From a virus (Duplodnaviria; Caudoviricetes): DNA of 60,456 bases. The DNA lies in IMG/VR virus record IMGVR_UViG_3300037422_000673, positions 1 to 60,456 of that record; one strand, 5' to 3'. How positions within the stretch are numbered: position 1 is the first letter of the stretch; each line of letters opens with the position of its first letter. Of the stretch, positions 4,451-50,829 are shown piece by piece. Position numbers and translations under genes: made by a program. The notes under the pieces were generated by a model. It had not been told where the DNA came from. It searched no databases and worked only from the letters and a program-made list of their open reading frames with translations.

Positions 4451-4881
4451 ACGACCTCCAGGGTAAAGGGGCGCCGGTCCATCTCCGCCATGAAGGCGCG
4501 GATCGCCGGCTTCGAGAGGAGCACCGCGAGCTGGCCGCGGCGGTGGCCGCGCGCCTGGCCGAGCAGGATGCAGCCGAGGACGTCGCTCTCCAGCCCGAGC
4601 TCGACGTCGCCGGCGACGTTGCCGCTGTGGATCAGGATCGAGTCGCGCCCGGGCACGCGCTCGACCAGGTAGACGTCACCCCGCTTCGGCGTCGTCACGC
4701 AGCGAACCGGGTACGTCCCCGGCGGCAGCCCGCCCGGCGGGATGCAGCTCCGCATCCGCCGGTTCGCCCGCCACGGGAGCTCGAGGCTGTAGGCAATCCG
4801 CGAGCCGTCCGCGCGCAGGAGGGCGCCGGGCGTGCCCTGGTCGGTGGAGCGACCGCGGACGAGGGTGAGGGTCGGCTGCAT
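4441..4881 (-). CDS. DUF5675 family putative endolysin (L,D-transpeptidase-like)
   Basis: 'TPGAL..YSLELPW..N....SCIP.G.Y', 'ILIHSGN', 'GCILLG'. Confidence 0.85.
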   Translation of the reverse strand: MQPTLTLVRGRSTDQGTPGALLRADGSRIAYSLELPWRANRRMRSCIPPGGLPPGTYPVRCVTTPKRGDVYLVERVPGRDSILIHSGNVAGDVELGLESDVLGCILLGQARGHRRGQLAVLLSKPAIRAFMAEMDRRPFTLEVVWT

Positions 4882-5246
4882 CACGACCTCCCCGGCCACG
4901 TGGCCGCGCCGAGCGCGACGGCCGCGAGGAAGAGCCAGGGGACGGCGACCGCGGGCACGGGCGTGCGGACGAGAAGGTCCCGCGCGAGCGCGGCCGCGAG
5001 CACGACGACGAACACCCAGGGGGCCCCCGCCGGCGCCGCCCAGCGCGGACCGAAGAGGTGGCCCATCAGGATCCCGATCCCGATCGGCCAGAGCGTCCAC
5101 CGTGGCGCGTTCGCGCGGAGCGCCCGGGTGAGCACGTCTCCGCCGCGGGTCGCGACCGCCCAGAGCTCGTACGCGAGCAGGTAGAGCCCGGCGGCGATCC
5201 AGGTGAGCTCGCCGTAGGTGAGGCCGAGCACGCGGCGCCACGTCAC
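4881..5246 (-). CDS. Multi-pass membrane protein (lysis region)
   Basis: About 4 hydrophobic segments; overlaps both neighbours. Confidence 0.75.
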   Translation of the reverse strand: MTWRRVLGLTYGELTWIAAGLYLLAYELWAVATRGGDVLTRALRANAPRWTLWPIGIGILMGHLFGPRWAAPAGAPWVFVVVLAAALARDLLVRTPVPAVAVPWLFLAAVALGAATWPGRS

Positions 5247-5617
5247 GGAGCACCTCCATGTGCCAGGCCTTCCGCACAGCCGTCCGCCTCGCCCTCGTCC
5301 CAGGAGCGCAGCGCGACGTGGCAGACCTCATGGGCGAGCGCGGTGTCTCGGGCGTCCGGGCCGGTGAGCACCTCGACGGACGTGCGGCAGTAGGGCGGAG
5401 TCGGGAAGTACGCGCAGCCTACGGCCTCGCGCTCCCACCCGCAGGGGAACGTCGCGTCGCGCCACCACACATCGAGAGCGAGGCCGGGCCACCGGGCCTC
5501 GGCGGCGGAGAGAATTGCGTCTGAGCCGGGCGCGACCGGCCCGTGCTGCCTGACTCCGGGCGTGTCGTCGAGGCACGTGCAGGCGGCCACGAGCAGCAGG
5601 GGGAGCGCGCGCCTCAA
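5243..5617 (-). CDS. Small lipoprotein with HExxH zincin motif
   Basis: TTG start overlapping upstream TGA; lipobox LLVAA-C; 'LAHEVCH...E..AD'. Confidence 0.65.
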   Translation of the reverse strand: MRRALPLLLVAACTCLDDTPGVRQHGPVAPGSDAILSAAEARWPGLALDVWWRDATFPCGWEREAVGCAYFPTPPYCRTSVEVLTGPDARDTALAHEVCHVALRSWDEGEADGCAEGLAHGGAP

Positions 5618-32957: not shown

Positions 32958-33377
32958 CTACGCGCCCTCCCCGATGAAGAGGCCGAGCTTCGGACGGGGC
33001 GCGGCCGGCGGCGGCGGGCGCTCGAGACGGGCCTTGGAACCGACCTGGGCGCCGGGTGCCGTGCTGCTCCCGGAGGCCTCGCTGCGGTCGGTCAAGGGCC
33101 CGGCTCCAACGCCCGGGGCCGCTGACGGCTTCGCTGCCTGCTGCGCCGCCCACTTCTCGCGGATCCGCTCCGCCTCCTCCGCCGTGTCCCGCACAGCGCG
33201 AGCTCGCGCGAGGACGTCGAGGATCTCCTCGGCCGAGCCCGGCGGCGGGTAGCGGCGCCCCGCGCCGCCGCACGAGGCCCGCACCCACGCGCCCGAAGGC
33301 GAGCGCAGGATCTCCGTGCCCACGGGGTACGTGGCCCCGCAGCCGCAGGCGCACCGGCCAGGATGCTGCGCCCTCAT
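32958..33377 (-). CDS. Hypothetical protein with N-terminal Cys motif
   Basis: 'GRCACGCG..YPVG'; coupled to neighbours. Confidence 0.65.
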   Translation of the reverse strand: MRAQHPGRCACGCGATYPVGTEILRSPSGAWVRASCGGAGRRYPPPGSAEEILDVLARARAVRDTAEEAERIREKWAAQQAAKPSAAPGVGAGPLTDRSEASGSSTAPGAQVGSKARLERPPPPAAPRPKLGLFIGEGA

Positions 33378-34138
33378 GCGGCCCTCCCCGCGCCCGCGCC
33401 CGCGCCCGGGAGCTGATCGCCCCACGCCCGCCACCCAGGCCGGCCCGACGTGCGCGCGAACATTTCCAAGTACGGGCCGGGCGCGACCCGCTCCACCTTC
33501 GCGAGGAACTCGACCGGCTTCGTCGAGTGGACCTCGCCCGTGCCGCCCTTACGCCGCGCCGCGAAGAACACGCTCCGCTCGTCGTGCACCAGAAACTTCG
33601 CCCGGCCGCGCCGGCAGATGAGGACCAGCTCGTGGGCGGTCCGGACGTAGTGCCCGCCGCCGAAGGCGAGCCGGCCGCCCTGGTCTTCGCCCTTGGTCAC
33701 GCGCAGGCCGTCCCTGATGAGCTTCCGCATCGGCCGCGCCGCGTCGGCGAAGCGCTCGTCGTCGGCGAAGGTGAGCAGGTGGTGCACGTCCTGGAGGAGC
33801 GCGCGCAGGTCCGCCTTCGGCGGCGTCCGCTTCACCCACGTCCACGCCCGCTTCGGCACGAAGCCCCACGAGCGCGCCAGCGCGCCGGCCGAACCGTCGA
33901 GGAGGTGCGAGTCGGTGGTCCACAGGAACAGGAACGAGTCCCGCGCGGCGATGTCTCCCACGGGCAGATCGACCGAGCGCGCCGCCTCCAGGGTCTCGTA
34001 CCCGCGCGCGCGAGCGAGCTTCTCCCCCTGGTCCGGAGCCAGGCGGGAGCCCTTGTCGCGGAACCGCCATGGCCAGTCGCACGTGATGGCGCCGAAGCCG
34101 CCGGGGACGGTCGGGAGCGGTGGGAAGGTCGGGATCAC
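33374..34138 (-). CDS. MT-A70 family adenine methyltransferase
   Basis: 'DWPWRF', 'LFLWTT', 'WGF....WTWVK', 'GHYVRTAHE', 'HSTKP', 'LEMFAR..RPGW.AWG'. Confidence 0.9.
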   Translation of the reverse strand: MIPTFPPLPTVPGGFGAITCDWPWRFRDKGSRLAPDQGEKLARARGYETLEAARSVDLPVGDIAARDSFLFLWTTDSHLLDGSAGALARSWGFVPKRAWTWVKRTPPKADLRALLQDVHHLLTFADDERFADAARPMRKLIRDGLRVTKGEDQGGRLAFGGGHYVRTAHELVLICRRGRAKFLVHDERSVFFAARRKGGTGEVHSTKPVEFLAKVERVAPGPYLEMFARTSGRPGWRAWGDQLPGAGAGAGRAA

Positions 34139-35055: not shown

Positions 35056-35286
35056 CTACGCCGCCTCCACGGGCGCGACCGGCGTGGGCGACGCCGGCGC
35101 TGCGACCTCGGGCGCCTTCCAGCACCCGCACGTGTCCGACTCCCGCGTCTCCGGCCAGACCCCGCGGCCGAGCCGGCCGATCGACGGCGCCCGGCGGTGG
35201 CAGTAGCCCACGGAGGCGCCGCTCGCGCGCTTCCAGAACCGACAGCCCGCGCACGTCTGCTCGACCACCACCTCGAGCGCGCTCAT
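35056..35286 (-). CDS. Small 4-Cys metal-binding protein
   Basis: 'TCAGCRFW..GYCHRRAP..WP.T...DTCG.W'. Confidence 0.7.
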   Translation of the reverse strand: MSALEVVVEQTCAGCRFWKRASGASVGYCHRRAPSIGRLGRGVWPETRESDTCGCWKAPEVAAPASPTPVAPVEAA

Positions 35287-35792
35287 CGCGACTCCCCGCA
35301 GGCGATGGCCCTGTTGGCCCACATCACCGCCTGCTCGAGGTTCGCCAGCGCGAGGTCCTGCTCGCGCCCGGGCGGCGTCAGCTGCGCGATCGTGAGGGCG
35401 AGGAAGAGCGCGTCCTGCCGGAGCGCCTGGTAGCGCGAGGGCTGGTCGCCCGCGGGCGGGTGGTGCGTGAAGGCCTTCTGGATCGCCTCCTCCCGCTCGC
35501 GCGTGAGCGCGTAGCGCGTCGGCCTGTCGGGCGGCGCGTCCACGGGCGGCGGGCCGCCCTGGAAGATGTTCGGGCGTCCGTCGAGCCACACGGGCGGATG
35601 GCCGCGGCCCACCACGCACAGCCAGACGGGGCCGCCCGCCGCCACCGCGGCGCGCTCCTCGTCCGTCGGCCTCCAGCAGGAGATGTACCCCTCCCCGCTG
35701 TCGTGGACGCGGAGGGGCTGGCACTCCTCGTCCGTCATGCCGGCCGGCTTGCCGAACGTGCGGTTCGCCTCGGGGAAGTCGATGGGGTTCAC
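35283..35792 (-). CDS. Unknown N-terminal domain fused to Acb2/Tad1-like helical hairpin (putative immune-signal sponge)
   Basis: C-terminal 'FTHHPP.GDQ..RY..LR....LA..I....P.GREQDLALANLEQAVMWANRAIA'. Confidence 0.7.
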   Translation of the reverse strand: MNPIDFPEANRTFGKPAGMTDEECQPLRVHDSGEGYISCWRPTDEERAAVAAGGPVWLCVVGRGHPPVWLDGRPNIFQGGPPPVDAPPDRPTRYALTREREEAIQKAFTHHPPAGDQPSRYQALRQDALFLALTIAQLTPPGREQDLALANLEQAVMWANRAIACGESR

Positions 35793-36166
35793 TGGATCCC
35801 TCCGTTCACGACGAAACCGTGCCAGCAACCCGCGGCCGACGCGTCGATGCTGGGAAAGAGCGAGAGGTCGTCGAACGTCTCGCCGGTCCGCTGCCACAGG
35901 AAGCCGGGAGGGATGACCGCCGTGCCCGCCTGGAGCACGCCGCCCTGGTACCTGCCCTCGACGAGCGGGCCGTAGAGCAGGTTCCACAGCTTCGAGATGG
36001 GCCGCCGGTCGTGCGTGCCGATGTCCCACGGCGCTCCGCCATCCAGCGGGTTCGCGAACGCCACGCAGATGTACGTCGTCGCGCAGTGCGGGCAGAGGAA
36101 GACCAGCCCCTGGCCGTGGCGCCCGGGCTCCGCCCAGAGCTGCGGCTTCAGCTCGGTGAGCTTCAC
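35789..36166 (-). CDS. DUF6527-like protein
   Basis: 'FLCPHC', 'WQRTGETFDDLSLFPSI....CWHGFVVNG'. Confidence 0.7.
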   Translation of the reverse strand: MKLTELKPQLWAEPGRHGQGLVFLCPHCATTYICVAFANPLDGGAPWDIGTHDRRPISKLWNLLYGPLVEGRYQGGVLQAGTAVIPPGFLWQRTGETFDDLSLFPSIDASAAGCWHGFVVNGGIQ

Positions 36167-37983: not shown

Positions 37984-38213
37984 CGCGATCCCCCGCCCTT
38001 GAGAAGGGTCAGCCGGCGGGGCGAGCCCGTCATCGGCCGTTGCGGGCCCGTCGCCTCGGCCCCAGCGTGCGCGCCGGGGGCGGGCGGGCTCCAGCGCGGA
38101 GGGCGGGCGAGAAGGCGCTCGCGCTGCTCGGCCAGCAGCCCGTAGACGATCGCGATCAGGCACACCCCGAAGAGGAACCCGATGGCGATGAGGAGCAGGT
38201 CGCGCAGCATCAC
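37980..38213 (-). CDS. Small single-TM protein
   Basis: N-terminal hydrophobic helix; coupled overlaps. Confidence 0.6.
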   Translation of the reverse strand: MMLRDLLLIAIGFLFGVCLIAIVYGLLAEQRERLLARPPRWSPPAPGAHAGAEATGPQRPMTGSPRRLTLLKGGGSR

Positions 38214-38704
38214 CGTACCCCCTCGAGCCGGCGCTGCGGGCCGGCGAGCTGGATGCCGCGCGCCAGCGCGACGCTCTCCGCGCCGATCCGCTGCACCCGC
38301 AGGCCAGCGCGCTCGATGTCGCAGGCCTCGACGTGGTCCACCCTCCGGTCCTCGAGCGCCTTGTCCGTCACCGCCGCGAGCTCGCCCGCCGCCGCCGCCG
38401 CGCGCATCACGAGGTGCTCGGCTCTCGAGTCCGGGATCGGCGTCGGCAGCGGGACCGCGTCCAGGCCCAGCGGGCGCAGGAGGTCCGACACCAGCGCCAG
38501 GCCGTTCTCGCGCAGCTCCGGCTCCTCGAGCAGCGTCGCGGCCAGCCCGAGGAGCTGGTGCGCCGGGATCGCGCGGCCCGCACACCACGCATCGACCGAG
38601 CACCGCGAGACGCCCATCAGCGCCGCCACCCGCGTCGCCCCCGCACCCCCGCCCCGGATCGCCCGGTCCATCGACCGCGCCACCGCTCGCTCCATCGCGT
38701 CCAT
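38210..38704 (-). CDS. CII-like regulatory protein (CP76-like)
   Basis: Downstream of cro; HTH 'GATRVAALMGVS'; C-terminal 'GEL....KALEDRRVD..E'. Confidence 0.7.
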   Translation of the reverse strand: MDAMERAVARSMDRAIRGGGAGATRVAALMGVSRCSVDAWCAGRAIPAHQLLGLAATLLEEPELRENGLALVSDLLRPLGLDAVPLPTPIPDSRAEHLVMRAAAAAGELAAVTDKALEDRRVDHVEACDIERAGLRVQRIGAESVALARGIQLAGPQRRLEGVR

Positions 38705-39088: not shown

Positions 39089-39406
39089 GTGGGGAAGAAG
39101 CGGGACGAAGATCGCGAGGTTGAAGACCGCGTTCGCGCGTGGATCCGCGAGCGGATGGAGCGCCGTGAACTCGGCGTCACCGCCGCGGCCGAGAAGCTCC
39201 GGATGAACCAGGGGAACCTGACCCGGATCCTTCAGGGATCGCGCGGCGTGTCAGCCGGGGTGGCGAAACGGGTGAGCGACACGTTCCAGATCGACCCGGC
39301 TCAACTCCTGAACGAAGACCCCGCCCAAGACTACTTTCGGGAGTACGTGCCCCGACCCGCGCGGAAGGAGCGGCGCGCGGCGGACAAGGGTGGCACCCGC
39401 CAGTGA
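39089..39406 (+). CDS. CI-like XRE repressor (HTH only)
   Basis: Divergent from cro; 'GVTAAAEKLRMNQGNLTRILQGSR'; probably leaderless GTG. Confidence 0.8.
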   Translation: MGKKRDEDREVEDRVRAWIRERMERRELGVTAAAEKLRMNQGNLTRILQGSRGVSAGVAKRVSDTFQIDPAQLLNEDPAQDYFREYVPRPARKERRAADKGGTRQ

Positions 39407-46847: not shown

Positions 46848-47747
46848 ATGGTGAGCTGCATCAACGCCGCGTTCGGCACGGACTGGGCCCTCTACCAGGG
46901 CGACTGCGTGGAGGTCCTCGCGCAGCTTCCGGAGCGCTCCATCGACTTCGCGCTCTACTCCCCGCCGTTCGCGAACCTCTACGTCTACTCGGACTCCGAG
47001 CGCGACATGGGGAACTGCGCCGACGACGCGGAGTTCCTCGCCCACTACGAGTACTGCGTCCGCGAGGTCTACCGCCTCCTGCGCCCGGGCCGCGTCGTCG
47101 CCGTCCACTGCAAGGACCTCGTCAACTACAAGGGCCGCGACGGGATGGCCGGGCTGCGCGACTTCCCCGGCGACCTCATCCGCCTGCACCAGGCGTGTGG
47201 CTTCGCCTACCACTCCCGCGTCACGGTCTGGAAATGCCCCGTGACGGAGATGCAGCGCACGAAGGCGCACGGGCTCCTCTACAAGCAGCTCCGCAAGGAC
47301 TCGACGTTCAGCCGGCAGGGTCTCGCCGAGTACGTCCTCGTGTTCCGGAAGTGGGCGCACACCGAGGCCGACGAGTCCGAGGTCTCGCCCGTCACCCACA
47401 CCGAGGAGTCCTTCCCGCTCGACCGCTGGCAGGAGTGGGCCTCGCCGGTCTGGATGGACATCGACCAGACCAACGTCCTGAACGTCGAGCAGGCGCGCGA
47501 CGACGAGGACGAGAAGCACATGTGCCCGCTCCAGCTCGACCTCATCGAGCGGAGCCTGACGCTATGGTCGAACCCGGGCGACGTCGTGCTCTCCCCGTTC
47601 GCCGGCATCGCCTCGGAGGGCGTCGGCGCGCTCCGCATCAGCCGGAAGTTCGTCGGCGTCGAGCTGAAGGAGAGCTACTTCAAGACCGCCGAGTCGAACC
47701 TCCGCGGCGCGCGCTCGCAGCTCGGGCTCTTCGGGGAGGGCGCGTAG
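46848..47747 (+). CDS. Beta-class amino-DNA methyltransferase (SPPF, probably N4-cytosine)
   Basis: 'YSPPFANLY', 'KHMCPLQL', 'VLSPFAGIASEG', 'GVELKESY'. Confidence 0.92.
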   Translation: MVSCINAAFGTDWALYQGDCVEVLAQLPERSIDFALYSPPFANLYVYSDSERDMGNCADDAEFLAHYEYCVREVYRLLRPGRVVAVHCKDLVNYKGRDGMAGLRDFPGDLIRLHQACGFAYHSRVTVWKCPVTEMQRTKAHGLLYKQLRKDSTFSRQGLAEYVLVFRKWAHTEADESEVSPVTHTEESFPLDRWQEWASPVWMDIDQTNVLNVEQARDDEDEKHMCPLQLDLIERSLTLWSNPGDVVLSPFAGIASEGVGALRISRKFVGVELKESYFKTAESNLRGARSQLGLFGEGA

Positions 47748-49631
47748 ATGGCCGCCGTCCATGAGTTCACCGTCCTCTTCCCGTTCTGCGGGCTCGGCGC
47801 CGGCGCGCGCGGCTTCCTCGAGGCCATGGCGCAGCTCGGCCGCGACCGCGCCCGGTTCGTGAACCTCGGCGGCATCGACCTGGACGCCGAGGCCTGCCGC
47901 GACTTCGAGATGCTCTCCGACGGGCCGGCCCTCTGCGCCGACATGTCGAAGCTCACGCCGTCGGAGCTGCTCGCGTTCGCCGGGGCGCGCCGGCCCGACT
48001 GCGTGTTCCTGTCGCCGCCGTGCAAGGGGTTCTCCCGCCTGCTCCCGACGGCGAGCGCCGCCCGCGAGAAGTACCAGGCGCTGAACCGGCTCGTGCTCCA
48101 GGGGCTCTTCCTCATCTGCGAGGCGTGGCCCTCCCCGCCCCCGGCGATCATCGTGGAGAACGTCCCGGGGATCATGTCGCGCGGCGCGGAGCTGCTCGGC
48201 AAGGTGCGGCGGCTCCTCGCGCAGTACGGGTACGTCTTCCACGAGGGGACGCACGACTGCGGCGAGGTGGGCGGGCTTGGCCAGCACCGGCGCCGGTTCC
48301 TCCTCATCGCCCGGCGCCCGGCGGACGTGCCCGCGTTCATCTACCGGCCGCCACTCCAGCGCGTGAAGGGGTGCGGCGAGGTCCTCGGCGAGCTCCCGCT
48401 GCCGGAGGACGAGGGCGCGGGCGCGCTGCACCGCCTGCCGAAGATCTCGTGGCTGAACTGGGTGCGCCTCGCCCTCATCCCCGCGGGCGGCGACTGGCGC
48501 GACCTCCCCGCCTCCATCCCCGAGGCGCTCCTCGCCCAGACCGCCGCGGGCGCGGAGTCGTTCAAGGGCCGGCCCGGGCTGTTCGGGGTCAACGGCTGGG
48601 ACGAGCCGACGTCCGCGGTGACGGGCTCGGCCTCCGTGTCCGGGTCGAACGGCACGGCGGCCGTCGCCGACCCGCGCCTCCTCACGCCGCTCGAGCCCGG
48701 GCAGGCGCGCCGCGAGGTGTTCGCCAAGTACGACGTCCGCCCGTGGGACGAGCCCGCGCGCACCGTCGCCGGCAGCGGGACGAACGGCGGCTTCGCGGTG
48801 GCAGACCCGCGGATCGGCCGCGGCGACAGCTCGCGCGGCGGCACCTTCGGCGTGGTCTCCTGCGCCGAGCCCACGCCGGCCGTCACCGGCGCGATGGCCG
48901 TCGCGCAGTCGAACACGCCGGCGGCGGTCGCTGACCCGCGACTGCCTCCGAATCCGAACCGCCACGAGGCCAAGTTCCGCGTGACAGGGTGGGATGCCCC
49001 CTCGCACCCGGTGACGGGAGCGCGCCCGGTTACGTCCGGCGGGCCGGCCGTCGCGGATCCCCGCCTCGCGCTCGACCATTCGCCCTACCGTGGCGCGCTC
49101 GGCGTGGTGGACTGGGCCGACCCGGCGCCCACCGTGCGCGGGGCGTCGAACGTCCGGACCGGACCGGGCTCCGTCGCCGACCCCCGCCCGACGTGCGTGC
49201 CACGCGCGACCGCCTACGGCGTGCTCCGCTGGGACGAGGCCGCGGCGACAGTCGCCGGCGGACGAATCGACAACGGCACCTACGCCGTCGCCGACCCCCG
49301 CCGCGCGCCCCAGCACGTCCCCGTAATCGTCGCCGCGGACGGGACGTGGCACCGGCCGATGACCCTCCTCGACCGGGCCGCCCTCCAGGGCCTGCCCGCG
49401 CGCGTCCGGGGCGAGCCCCTCCGCCTCGCCGGACGGTCCAGCGCAGCTCACGGCGAGCGCATCGGGAACGCCGTTCCGGTCCAGGCCGCGACCGCCATCG
49501 CCGTCTCGATCCTGAAGTCCCTCCTCGCCGGCTCGCTCGGCACCTGGTTCCTCTCGAGCGAGGGGATCTGGGTGCGCGAGGACGGCCGGGCGCGCGAGGA
49601 GCTCGAGGCGCGGGAGGTCCTCTCCGCATGA
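47748..49631 (+). CDS. C5-cytosine DNA methyltransferase with six internal repeats
   Basis: 'FCGLGAG', 'SPPCKGFS', 'ENVP', 'QHRRR', 'IGNAVP'; 6 x (V..W.EP..TV.G...VADPR). Confidence 0.92.
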   Translation: MAAVHEFTVLFPFCGLGAGARGFLEAMAQLGRDRARFVNLGGIDLDAEACRDFEMLSDGPALCADMSKLTPSELLAFAGARRPDCVFLSPPCKGFSRLLPTASAAREKYQALNRLVLQGLFLICEAWPSPPPAIIVENVPGIMSRGAELLGKVRRLLAQYGYVFHEGTHDCGEVGGLGQHRRRFLLIARRPADVPAFIYRPPLQRVKGCGEVLGELPLPEDEGAGALHRLPKISWLNWVRLALIPAGGDWRDLPASIPEALLAQTAAGAESFKGRPGLFGVNGWDEPTSAVTGSASVSGSNGTAAVADPRLLTPLEPGQARREVFAKYDVRPWDEPARTVAGSGTNGGFAVADPRIGRGDSSRGGTFGVVSCAEPTPAVTGAMAVAQSNTPAAVADPRLPPNPNRHEAKFRVTGWDAPSHPVTGARPVTSGGPAVADPRLALDHSPYRGALGVVDWADPAPTVRGASNVRTGPGSVADPRPTCVPRATAYGVLRWDEAAATVAGGRIDNGTYAVADPRRAPQHVPVIVAADGTWHRPMTLLDRAALQGLPARVRGEPLRLAGRSSAAHGERIGNAVPVQAATAIAVSILKSLLAGSLGTWFLSSEGIWVREDGRAREELEAREVLSA

Positions 49632-49960
49632 AGCCCCGCCCCCCGCTCCCGCCTCCCCGCGAGATCCGCGAGGGCCACGTGCCGCCTCGCCCGCCGCCGA
49701 ACCCCATCCCCAGCGACGGACGCGTCATCAGCGACGACAGCGCCTGGGACGTCTGGTTCCCCCGCGTGATCATCGGGTTCTTCGCGGTCGCTTCGGCGTT
49801 CTACGTGTTCATGATGGCCAGGCTGCTGCTCTTCGTTCCGCGCCGCTGCCTCGAGCCCCGCCAGGTCGTCGAGTACGTGGAGACTCCGAGCGGCTACCTG
49901 CGCCAGGACGTGCACCTCGTCTGCGACCGCTGGGCAGACGAGGAGGTCGAGCGCCCGTGA
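49628..49960 (+). CDS. Small single-TM protein
   Basis: Pro-rich N-terminus, hydrophobic helix; ATGA/GTGA coupling. Confidence 0.65.
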   Translation: MKPRPPLPPPREIREGHVPPRPPPNPIPSDGRVISDDSAWDVWFPRVIIGFFAVASAFYVFMMARLLLFVPRRCLEPRQVVEYVETPSGYLRQDVHLVCDRWADEEVERP

Positions 49961-50829
49961 CGACCCCCGCCCAGCGCTGGAACCGCGGCCGCGAGTACTA
50001 CCGGACCGACCGCGACACCATCGACCCCCGCCGCCATGGCGCCGAGGAGATCGCCGAGCTCGACGCGCGCCGCTTCCTCGTCGCCCACCACTACGCCGGC
50101 TCCGACTCCTACCCCGCCACCCAGCTCCGGGTCGGCCTCTTCCGCTCCACGGGCCTCGGCGCGCCGCGCCTGGTCGGCGCCGCTGTTTTCGGCGTGCCCC
50201 AGGCCGGCGCCTCCATCACCCGGTGGACCGGGCTCCCCGCCGAGCACGGCGTGGTCCTGCAGCGGCTGGCACTTCTCGACGAGGTCGAGGCCTACGGCGA
50301 GACCTGGTTCCTCTCCCGCGCCTTCGACGCCGTGCGGGCGCGGCTCCCCCTGGTGCAGGCCGTCCTCACGTACGCGGACCCCGTCGCCCGGGTGAACGCC
50401 GCCGGCGTCGAGTACAAGCCGGGCCACATCGGGCACATCTACAAGGCGTTCTCCGGCTGCTACCTGGGCACCACGCGCCGGGACGACACCTACCTGACGC
50501 CGGGGGCCGTCGTCCTCGCGCCGCGGTCGGTGTCGAAGCTGCGCAACTCCGAGCGCGGCCGCGGCGGCGTGGAGGCGCGCCTGCTCCGGCTCGGCGCCCC
50601 GGCGCGGGCGCCGGGCGAGGCGGACCGCGACTACGCCCTCCGGCTCGTCCGGTGCGGCTGGCTGCGCCGGCTCCGCCGTCCCGGGAACCACGCCTACGCC
50701 TGGCCCCTCGTCCACGGCGGCGCGCGCCGGCGGCTCCTCGCCACCTGGAAGCTGCGCCCGCCCCCGACCGAGGCGGAGGACTTCGTGCTCGGGCCCGCCC
50801 CCTGGCAGCCGGAAGGAGCGGCGGCGTGA
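49957..50829 (+). CDS. Mom-family (GNAT-like) adenine modification protein
   Basis: 'ARRFLVAHHY', 'LVGAAVFG', 'LQRLALLD', 'ETWFLSRA', 'LTYADP', 'GHIGHIYKA'. Confidence 0.85.
   Translation: MTTPAQRWNRGREYYRTDRDTIDPRRHGAEEIAELDARRFLVAHHYAGSDSYPATQLRVGLFRSTGLGAPRLVGAAVFGVPQAGASITRWTGLPAEHGVVLQRLALLDEVEAYGETWFLSRAFDAVRARLPLVQAVLTYADPVARVNAAGVEYKPGHIGHIYKAFSGCYLGTTRRDDTYLTPGAVVLAPRSVSKLRNSERGRGGVEARLLRLGAPARAPGEADRDYALRLVRCGWLRRLRRPGNHAYAWPLVHGGARRRLLATWKLRPPPTEAEDFVLGPAPWQPEGAAA

Follow-up and report, generated by a model that had tools for sequence, protein, structure and literature searches.

The stretch of DNA considered here, referred to as the window, is a complete provirus record of IMG/VR with a length of 60,456 b, and our subject is one of its minus-strand genes, at 35283–35792. 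The gene encodes a protein of two domains, hereafter the fusion protein, in which an N-terminal domain (N-domain) is followed by a proline-rich linker and then by a helical hairpin that belongs to the Acb2 family of phage sponges. The reading that we favour, and that we consider rather probable, is that its product serves the phage in counter-defence and is composed of two modules, an oligomeric signal sponge and a dimeric one. The features of the locus are as follows.

35283..35792, minus strand: the two-domain gene, with 169 codons and a TGA stop codon (35283–35285) and with a GTG start codon at 35790–35792

35798..35803, minus strand: Shine-Dalgarno-like GGAGGG, 7 nucleotides 5' of the GTG start codon

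35577..35792, minus strand: N-domain, residues 1–72, as delimited by the AlphaFold2 model and the profile relatives

35502..35576, minus strand: proline-rich linker, residues 73–97, with a predicted local distance difference test score (pLDDT) below 50 for residues 81–92

35286..35501, minus strand: Acb2-family domain, residues 98–169, with a short helix (98–107), the loop FTHHPPAGDQ and two long antiparallel helices (117–138 and 143–166)

Gene calling was done by codon-position G+C content, in particular that at third codon positions (GC3), a method that was chosen for the G+C content of about 72% of the window. By this call the two-domain open reading frame (ORF) scores 51.4 and lies within a series of tightly coupled minus-strand genes with overlapping starts and stops. 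Its GC3 is 0.98 overall, with 0.97 for residues 1–80, 1.00 for residues 81–100 and 0.99 for residues 101–169, and because the GC3 is uniformly high in a single frame the entire ORF is coding. The 30 nucleotides upstream of the GTG start end with ...GAACGGAGGGATCCA, and the start shares 4 nucleotides (GTGA) with the stop of the upstream gene, an overlap that suggests translational coupling. Inside the linker there is an in-frame GTG at V84 (35541–35543, minus strand), which is a possible start for a stand-alone hairpin protein of 86 amino acids, with no clear ribosome-binding site in front of it. The protein's own cluster contains two member sequences on three contigs, the longest of which has 145,695 b. 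The stretch 35283–35792 is one genuine gene and not two genes read together, and the original prediction, which had been made from the letters alone and had placed a two-domain ORF at this position, is confirmed, its coordinates being those of one minus-strand ORF including the TGA stop.

We consider the C-terminal half first. Residues 109–165 match the Pfam family PF24729 (Acb2_Tad1_hairpin) with 58.4 bits at a cutoff of 27 (E 8e-16), over profile positions 1–58 of 58, and the C-terminal half matches phrog_1454 with E 1.7e-20; for this half, as for the N-terminal one, the matches are much stronger than chance would give. Scans confirmed by tblastn gave relatives of the hairpin at 54 viral and 9 genome loci, which align with about residues 104–167 and have best-segment identities of 31–72%; nearly all of them are stand-alone proteins of about 65–80 amino acids, and a few have short N-terminal additions in the form of Cys-rich or membrane segments. 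In one case, on the contig of a Planctomycetaceae metagenome-assembled genome (L058:1990-3798), the hairpin ends a stop-to-stop frame of 603 codons, which is either one long protein or an open frame in GC-rich DNA. A word-indexed homologue search with residues 88–169 alone returned no candidate with three common words, which reflects a limit of the index and not an absence of relatives. The single-sequence search of the PDB with the fusion protein returned one chance row only (E 0.85). With a profile of 36 members of the clade, the PDB search returned Acb2 homolog 43 (9PTQ) with E 1.9e-6 over residues 3–62 of 76. The same profile reaches the Tad1 chains (7UAV/7UAW, 8KBB-8KBH) with E 1.3e-3 in an alignment limited to about 23 second-helix residues, where the pattern SRE..A.T..E.A.MW.N is in common, and it reaches T4 Vs.4 (7uq2) marginally, with E 0.53.

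The AlphaFold2 model of the full protein, which was run with a 150-row alignment, consists of two separately folded domains, residues 1–72 and 98–166, joined by the proline-rich linker of low confidence. The two long antiparallel helices that are central to the Acb2 family are present in the model, with a block-mean pLDDT above 90 for residues 111–160. Members of the family are small single-domain proteins of about 60–100 amino acids, and in this respect the fusion protein differs, having 169 amino acids and an extra N-terminal domain of 72 residues. Tad1 has a second domain that forms the pocket for glyco-cyclic ADP-ribose (gcADPR), for which the fusion protein has no room, since 3 residues are left after residue 166; and the N-domain has no Tad1 match in the Pfam, PDB sequence and Foldseek searches. 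When the whole model was compared with the PDB by Foldseek, nothing matched at E<=1e-3. The C-terminal half is, by its sequence, an Acb2-family helical hairpin, and it is on the sequence that the family assignment rests because unrelated hairpins score equally high structurally. Of the earlier designation as an Acb2/Tad1-like sponge domain, the Acb2 part holds, by PF24729, the profile match to the solved Acb2 homolog 43 (9PTQ, hereafter Acb2_43) and the fold, whereas the Tad1 part falls away, there being about 23 residues in common and no second domain.

It is noted that the clade of the hairpin contains members with experimental data, which were reported by Hadary et al. (bioRxiv 10.1101/2025.08.24.671296, the same work as PMC12393519). 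Table S1 of Hadary et al. gives Acb2 homologues (9,141 sequences according to the methods), and the motif of the clade is present in 17 of its rows, several of which are the same IMG/VR genes as the relatives found here; the fusion protein is not in that table, in which two of its motifs have 0 matches. In the work, 46 Acb2 homologues were assayed against seven defence systems. Homologue #4 (Table S2, 67 amino acids) is from the same clade as the hairpin of the fusion protein, and it gave both culture collapse and rescue in the plaque assay with the cyclic-oligonucleotide-based anti-phage signalling system (CBASS) of E. albertii, the product of which is 3'3'-cyclic GMP-AMP (3'3'-cGAMP), and it was active against 0 of the 6 other systems. 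It resembles residues 103–166 of the fusion protein, with the common pattern FTYH..P..Q..Y..LR...A..LA...P.GRE..LA...LE.A.MWAN and with about half of the positions identical (about 32 of 63, in an alignment made by eye). Unlike the fusion protein, homologue #4 is a single domain without an N-terminal module, and it keeps a Tyr and both Lys where the fusion protein has H110, A114 and L129. The founding CBASS sponges, PaMx33 Acb2 (8H2J) and T4 Vs.4 (7UQ2), have marginal sequence similarity to the fusion protein, and an N-terminal domain is absent from both.

Acb2_43, which is from another clade, is a stand-alone protein of 76 amino acids that forms the usual hexamer and acts as a sponge for 3' cyclic ADP-ribose (3'cADPR), by which it blocks type I Thoeris and not CBASS. 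Its pocket is made by T4, H5, L6 and V7 of the N-terminal strand together with K19 and K55. We mapped these residues through the HMMER alignment of the clade profile to Acb2_43, with the chain assumed to be numbered one ahead of the paper. On this mapping H5 corresponds to H111 of the fusion protein (His in 34 of 35 clade members), K19 to R125 (Arg in 33/35) and K55 to R161, while L6 and V7 of strand beta1, by which Acb2_43 contacts the adenine, correspond to P112 and P113. The fusion protein retains the invariant positions of the clade, namely P140, R143, E144, A148, E153, V156, W158, A159, N160 and A164, and the near-invariant positions H111, Q117 and R125.

We now turn to the N-domain. In the AlphaFold2 model it has six short strands and one helix (strands 2–4, 11–13, 27–31 and 36–41, helix 44–51, strands 57–60 and 68–71), with a block-mean pLDDT above 90 up to residue 60 and of 77 for residues 61–70; in the single-sequence run the domain was left unmodelled, with a pLDDT of 31–49. 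A profile made from six sequences and run against 1.84 billion sequences gave 2,977 representatives at E<=1e-3 and 992 at E<=1e-10. The relatives of the N-domain in the word-indexed search are stand-alone proteins of about 100 amino acids, and 97 of the 149 newly returned representatives have at most 125 amino acids; since most relatives are short and stand alone, the domain would work alone and must have an activity of its own. The PHROG families that it matches are all of unknown function (phrog_11885, E 1.1e-6; phrog_34105, E 2.6e-6; phrog_25433, E 9e-4), while Pfam has no match for it and NCBIfam returns only rows far under their cutoffs. In Tal et al. 2025 (PMC12265669), the N-domain motifs are absent from the six supplements in text form, although the PDFs and other files could still list them. 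In an alignment of 197 sequences conservation is highest at P3, F6, P16, C24, L27, S38, W40, W57, G62, P66 and P67, and every residue conserved in at least 85% of these sequences is present in the fusion protein; this hallmark set was defined in the present analysis, as the family has no published definition. That the N-terminal half forms a compact module of its own, as was originally predicted, is borne out by the profile family and by the AlphaFold2 fold. The motif strings written down for the protein at that time are right in content and approximate in spacing; for example, 'L...ISCW' has nine residues between L27 and I37.

Searches of structures added little. In the ESM Atlas, searched over all clusters and over the named ones only, the query found only viral clusters of 'hypothetical protein', and the nearest named rows, with template modelling (TM) scores of 0.40 and 0.34, were judged to be no match. 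When the N-domain profile was compared with the PDB sequences, a beta-expansin (E 0.045) and 2jvm (E 0.43) came up, and both were discarded as short chance matches to stretches containing Cys and Gly or GHP. The wide and the second-look lists of VIA-align were filled by the helical hairpin, and the fold of the N-domain was hardly sampled there against the solved structures.

The N-domain is predicted to be an intertwined homodimer. The prediction passed with a score of 0.52, the best control having 0.00; among proteins of solved structure, 20 of 30 that are pairs of one chain and 1 of 23 that are single chains attain such a score, counts that are only rough here, since the alignment was our own. 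At least 97% of the contacts recur between runs, and the partner has a pLDDT of at least 71. In the predicted dimer the interface is very large, with about 190 contacts, in which strand 36–42 lies with residues 55–60 of the partner and strand 57–60 with residues 68–71, and it contains the most conserved residues S38, W40, W57, P66 and P67. A conserved acidic surface stretch, FPEAN...KPxGMTDEEC, lies mostly outside this predicted interface.

To what the N-domain is joined elsewhere was examined in partner-domain scans of 72 of the 2,977 representatives (52 and 20, with Pfam) and of the ORFs of 18 viral loci. The latter derive from an IMG/VR locus scan with a single peptide pattern from a 6-row alignment, a narrow sample of 20 loci, and the Pfam scan of the neighbourhoods covered 112 of 129 ORFs, from 18 of these loci, with L074, L077 and L086 omitted as apparent near-duplicates of L073, L078 and L087. 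In 2 of the 18 loci the N-domain is joined to Tad3 (PF25185, E 8.7e-32 and 2.1e-31). These two proteins, of 209 and 210 amino acids (L084:2995-3621 and L089:2992-3621), are encoded on related contigs, one of 62 kb and one of 50 kb; their N-domain parts match the N-domain profile with E 4.5e-25 and 2.3e-25, and the Tad3 part matches the solved chain 9b7d_B with E 1.4e-4. Like the fusion protein, they consist of the N-domain, a linker and then an anti-defence module of a validated family. The module itself differs from Acb2, since Tad3, which acts against type I Thoeris, is an inhibitor of ThsB and not a signal sponge: as a homodimer it binds two monomers of ThsB, the active site of which it blocks (PMC13728456). 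The N-domain-Tad3 form was found in 0 of 75 records of cultured phages.

Among cultured phages, tblastn found the N-domain in 40 records, with stand-alone copies in phages of Caulobacter, Xanthomonas, Pseudomonas, Paracoccus and Faecalibacterium. A further kind of partner occurs in the Caulobacter jumbo phage CcrColossus, where gp212 (L065:2495-3418, annotated as 'metal-dependent phosphohydrolase', 307 amino acids) has the N-domain in common with the fusion protein, at about residues 3–78, and carries an HD_4-type phosphohydrolase in place of Acb2. The HD_4 match in gp212 is weak (23.4 bits, cutoff 27.2) and is clear in its phiCbK homologue gp249 (38 bits), the HD parts of the two being 38% identical (E 3e-29). 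In phiCbK, a relative of CcrColossus, the N-domain gene gp244 (L072:2992-3294) and the HD_4 gene gp249 (4714-5325) are separate and lie 1.4 kb apart. An RtcB tRNA ligase gene adjoins the N-domain and HD_4 genes in both Caulobacter phages, together with a metallophosphoesterase gene in CcrColossus, and the neighbourhood looks like an RNA-repair or nucleotide-hydrolase counter-defence cluster.

Stand-alone N-domain genes have also other neighbours. Some directly follow a pyrimidine-hydroxymethylase/thymidylate-synthase-like gene and are near ThyX, dCMP deaminase and DNA polymerase genes; one copy is between a helicase and a polymerase clamp, and another is beside MazG and recombination genes. 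Elsewhere the gene has portal and prohead protease on its two sides, adjoins the large terminase, or accompanies D5-type primases or DNA polymerase A. Three individual cases are described here in their own right. In MW202777 and OP947159 an unannotated N-domain ORF (L067:2375-2749 and L068:2501-2836) begins at the stop of the pyrimidine-hydroxymethylase/thymidylate-synthase-like gene and lies upstream of ThyX, dCMP deaminase and DNA polymerase, and in OP947159 it overlaps the annotated start of dCMP deaminase in a different frame. At L088:2989-3261 a stand-alone N-domain gene comes right after a family A DNA polymerase gene and two genes before an adenylosuccinate-synthetase-like gene, an arrangement that we take to resemble that of phages replacing adenine in their DNA.

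The fusion of the N-domain with Acb2 is so far unique among the data examined. In the word-indexed search 1 of 7 matches spans both domains, namely the protein's own cluster. A Mycobacterium prophage match covering 70% of the fusion protein was rejected, because it is a plain hairpin protein, the upstream part being a spurious gapped alignment. A literature search that was narrow on this point found no publication on Acb2 joined to another domain, and in Hadary et al. the word 'fused' is absent and 'fusion' occurs once, for a purification tag.

As regards the setting of the gene, a minus-strand arm at about 8–26 kb of the provirus has lambda-type terminase and portal genes, a capsid-protease fusion and tail genes. 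It is followed, at about 27–38.7 kb, by an early/replication module with a RusA-like resolvase, an HNH nuclease, DUF1643, an MT-A70 methylase and a CII-like regulator (38210–38704), and a Cro/CI-type helix-turn-helix (HTH) gene at 39089–39406 has the opposite orientation to this module. The plus-strand arm carries a helicase, two further DNA methylases, a Mom-like protein, an excisionase-like HTH protein and the integrase. In total the provirus has three methyltransferases (of the MT-A70, N6/N4 and C5 types) and the Mom-like protein, at 33374–34138, 46848–47747, 47748–49631 and 49957–50829, a heavy load of DNA-modification genes that is presumably directed against restriction. The two-domain gene sits in the early operon, downstream of the CII-like regulator, and from this position it would be an early lytic gene of a temperate phage rich in DNA-modification counter-measures. 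Its two immediate neighbours, both on the minus strand, are translationally coupled. The downstream one (35056–35286) encodes a 76-amino-acid Cys-rich protein (CxxC...C...CxC) with no family match, and the upstream one (35789–36166) encodes 125 amino acids with a sole match, at the C-terminus, to phrog_34484. PADLOC matched 0 of 9 proteins.

Based on these data, we propose the following picture of how the protein would act. The two-domain protein would be made early in lytic growth of the temperate phage, and its C-terminal module would assemble as an interlocked hexamer, a trimer of dimers, as in the solved Acb2 relatives. A nucleotide immune signal would then be captured in pockets made from the N-terminal ends of paired protomers and be withheld from the defence effector. 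Two paired protomers contribute their N-terminal parts to the dinucleotide pocket in the solved Acb2 structures, and because the pocket is built in this way, one N-domain dimer would be placed beside each ligand pocket, tethered just outside it by the flexible linker of about 25 residues. The N-domain would bring a second counter-defence activity and would not be mere padding. As for the signal, by analogy with the tested homologues the most likely candidates are a CBASS cyclic dinucleotide, for example 3'3'-cGAMP, in the first place, and 3'cADPR of type I Thoeris in the second; the ligand is not named with confidence because the fusion protein departs from its clade at conserved positions.

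These departures are among the observations that weigh against the proposed picture. They are Y110H (Tyr in 30/35 clade members), K114A (24/35), K129L (27/35), S142G (34/35), S146D (clade residue in 30/35), T150A (34/35), A161R (31/35) and R165C (32/35), and with them the choice of ligand, or the binding itself, may differ. In addition, the cGAMP contacts Y11 and K26 of PaMx33 Acb2 cannot be mapped onto the fusion protein, and neither can R67 and T74; and in Hadary et al. homologue #37, a clade member of 147 amino acids with a C-terminal extension, has no validated activity in the seven systems. One may then suppose that the hairpin no longer binds a signal and is an oligomerisation scaffold displaying several copies of the N-domain, which would be the functional part. 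The loss of Tyr110, Lys114, Lys129, Thr150 and Arg165, the lack of validated activity of #37 with its extra domain and the fact that the N-domain works alone in most phages, as its many short relatives suggest, would all fit this explanation. We nevertheless regard it as improbable, since all invariant positions of the clade and the three near-invariant ones are retained, a His and two basic residues are present at the pocket positions of Acb2_43, the active homologue #4 likewise has Gly at the position of S142, and other clade members with N-terminal extensions exist.

The remaining adverse observations concern the N-domain and its joining with Acb2. PF24729 is present in 0 of the 72 scanned relatives of the N-domain, in which the sole partner above the cutoff is a pectate-lyase-like domain behind a membrane segment; an N-domain ORF within 5–6 kb was found at 0 of the 63 loci of hairpin relatives, a result repeated over 93 sources; and 0 of 118 cultured-phage records cover at least 80% of the fusion protein. 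Moreover, most fusion partners of the N-domain are without a link to defence. There is a large low-GC subfamily of about 184 amino acids, in which the N-domain is joined to a transmembrane segment and to a tail that weakly resembles YfiM lipoproteins (E 0.009) and which includes P0161, P0019, P0022, P0035, P0095 and about 20 more; P0158, P0162, P0165–P0167, P0175 and P0177 combine the N-domain with a single membrane segment and an extended extracytoplasmic region, which is once pectate-lyase-like; and other relatives carry Cys-rich tails. As these membrane-anchored and enzyme-linked relatives indicate, the N-domain is used in other settings too, and its stand-alone genes are found in replication/nucleotide-metabolism and head/packaging modules. 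It could be argued on these grounds, and from the neighbours named above (thymidylate-synthase-like, ThyX, dCMP deaminase, DNA polymerase, helicase, clamp, MazG, adenylosuccinate-synthetase-like, portal and terminase genes), that the N-domain has an ordinary phage role, as an accessory of nucleotide metabolism or replication, a helper of morphogenesis or a dimerising or anchoring module, with its fusion to Acb2 being incidental and the protein being a plain sponge with a passenger. One would expect a core factor of replication or assembly to stay in a fixed place, but the N-domain gene has no constant module; its occurrence is patchy and at variable positions, as is typical of accessory genes, and it has been fused independently to two families for which anti-defence activity has been shown experimentally, Acb2 and, at L084 and L089, Tad3. 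We therefore think that an ordinary role is unlikely. Far less credible still is that the ORF is an artefact in which neighbouring genes were joined by an assembly or sequencing error. The confinement of the fusion to the protein's own cluster and the in-frame GTG at V84 are what such an error might leave behind, but across the two domains and the linker a single frame keeps a GC3 of 0.97–1.00 and contains no stop, the cluster has its two sequences on three contigs, and the analogous N-domain-Tad3 fusions are on two separate contigs.

We return to the two-module counter-defence reading and to what it says of the N-domain. An accessory counter-defence role fits the shifting genomic position of the domain, its restriction to viruses and its independent fusions to Acb2, Tad3 and a nucleotide hydrolase, all of which is circumstantial. 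It had been suggested at the outset that the N-domain is a new anti-defence or sponge family; for the first there is the circumstantial evidence of Tad3 in 2 of the 18 loci and of HD_4 in CcrColossus, and nothing supports the second. Tentatively, as a possibility that goes further than the data on this one gene, we suggest that the N-domain may represent a large phage-specific family of dimeric counter-defence proteins, with about 3,000 clusters at 50% identity and mostly stand-alone members of 80–110 amino acids, that has repeatedly been welded to Acb2, Tad3 and HD_4 as bifunctional inhibitors and that possibly acts through the FPEAN...KPxGMTDEEC loop.

Finally, we note what the finding would mean. 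Acb2 sponges are known as small single-domain proteins, and the form in which the N-domain precedes Acb2 is an unusual architecture. The value of the fusion lies mainly in being a pointer, as it links a very common phage domain to counter-defence, and the fusions to Tad3 and HD_4 point in the same way. If the N-domain is not an inhibitor, what we have here is just Acb2 in a new architectural variant; if it inhibits by itself, a widespread family would join the anti-defence repertoire of phages, and the stand-alone copies in cultured phages would provide a ready test set.

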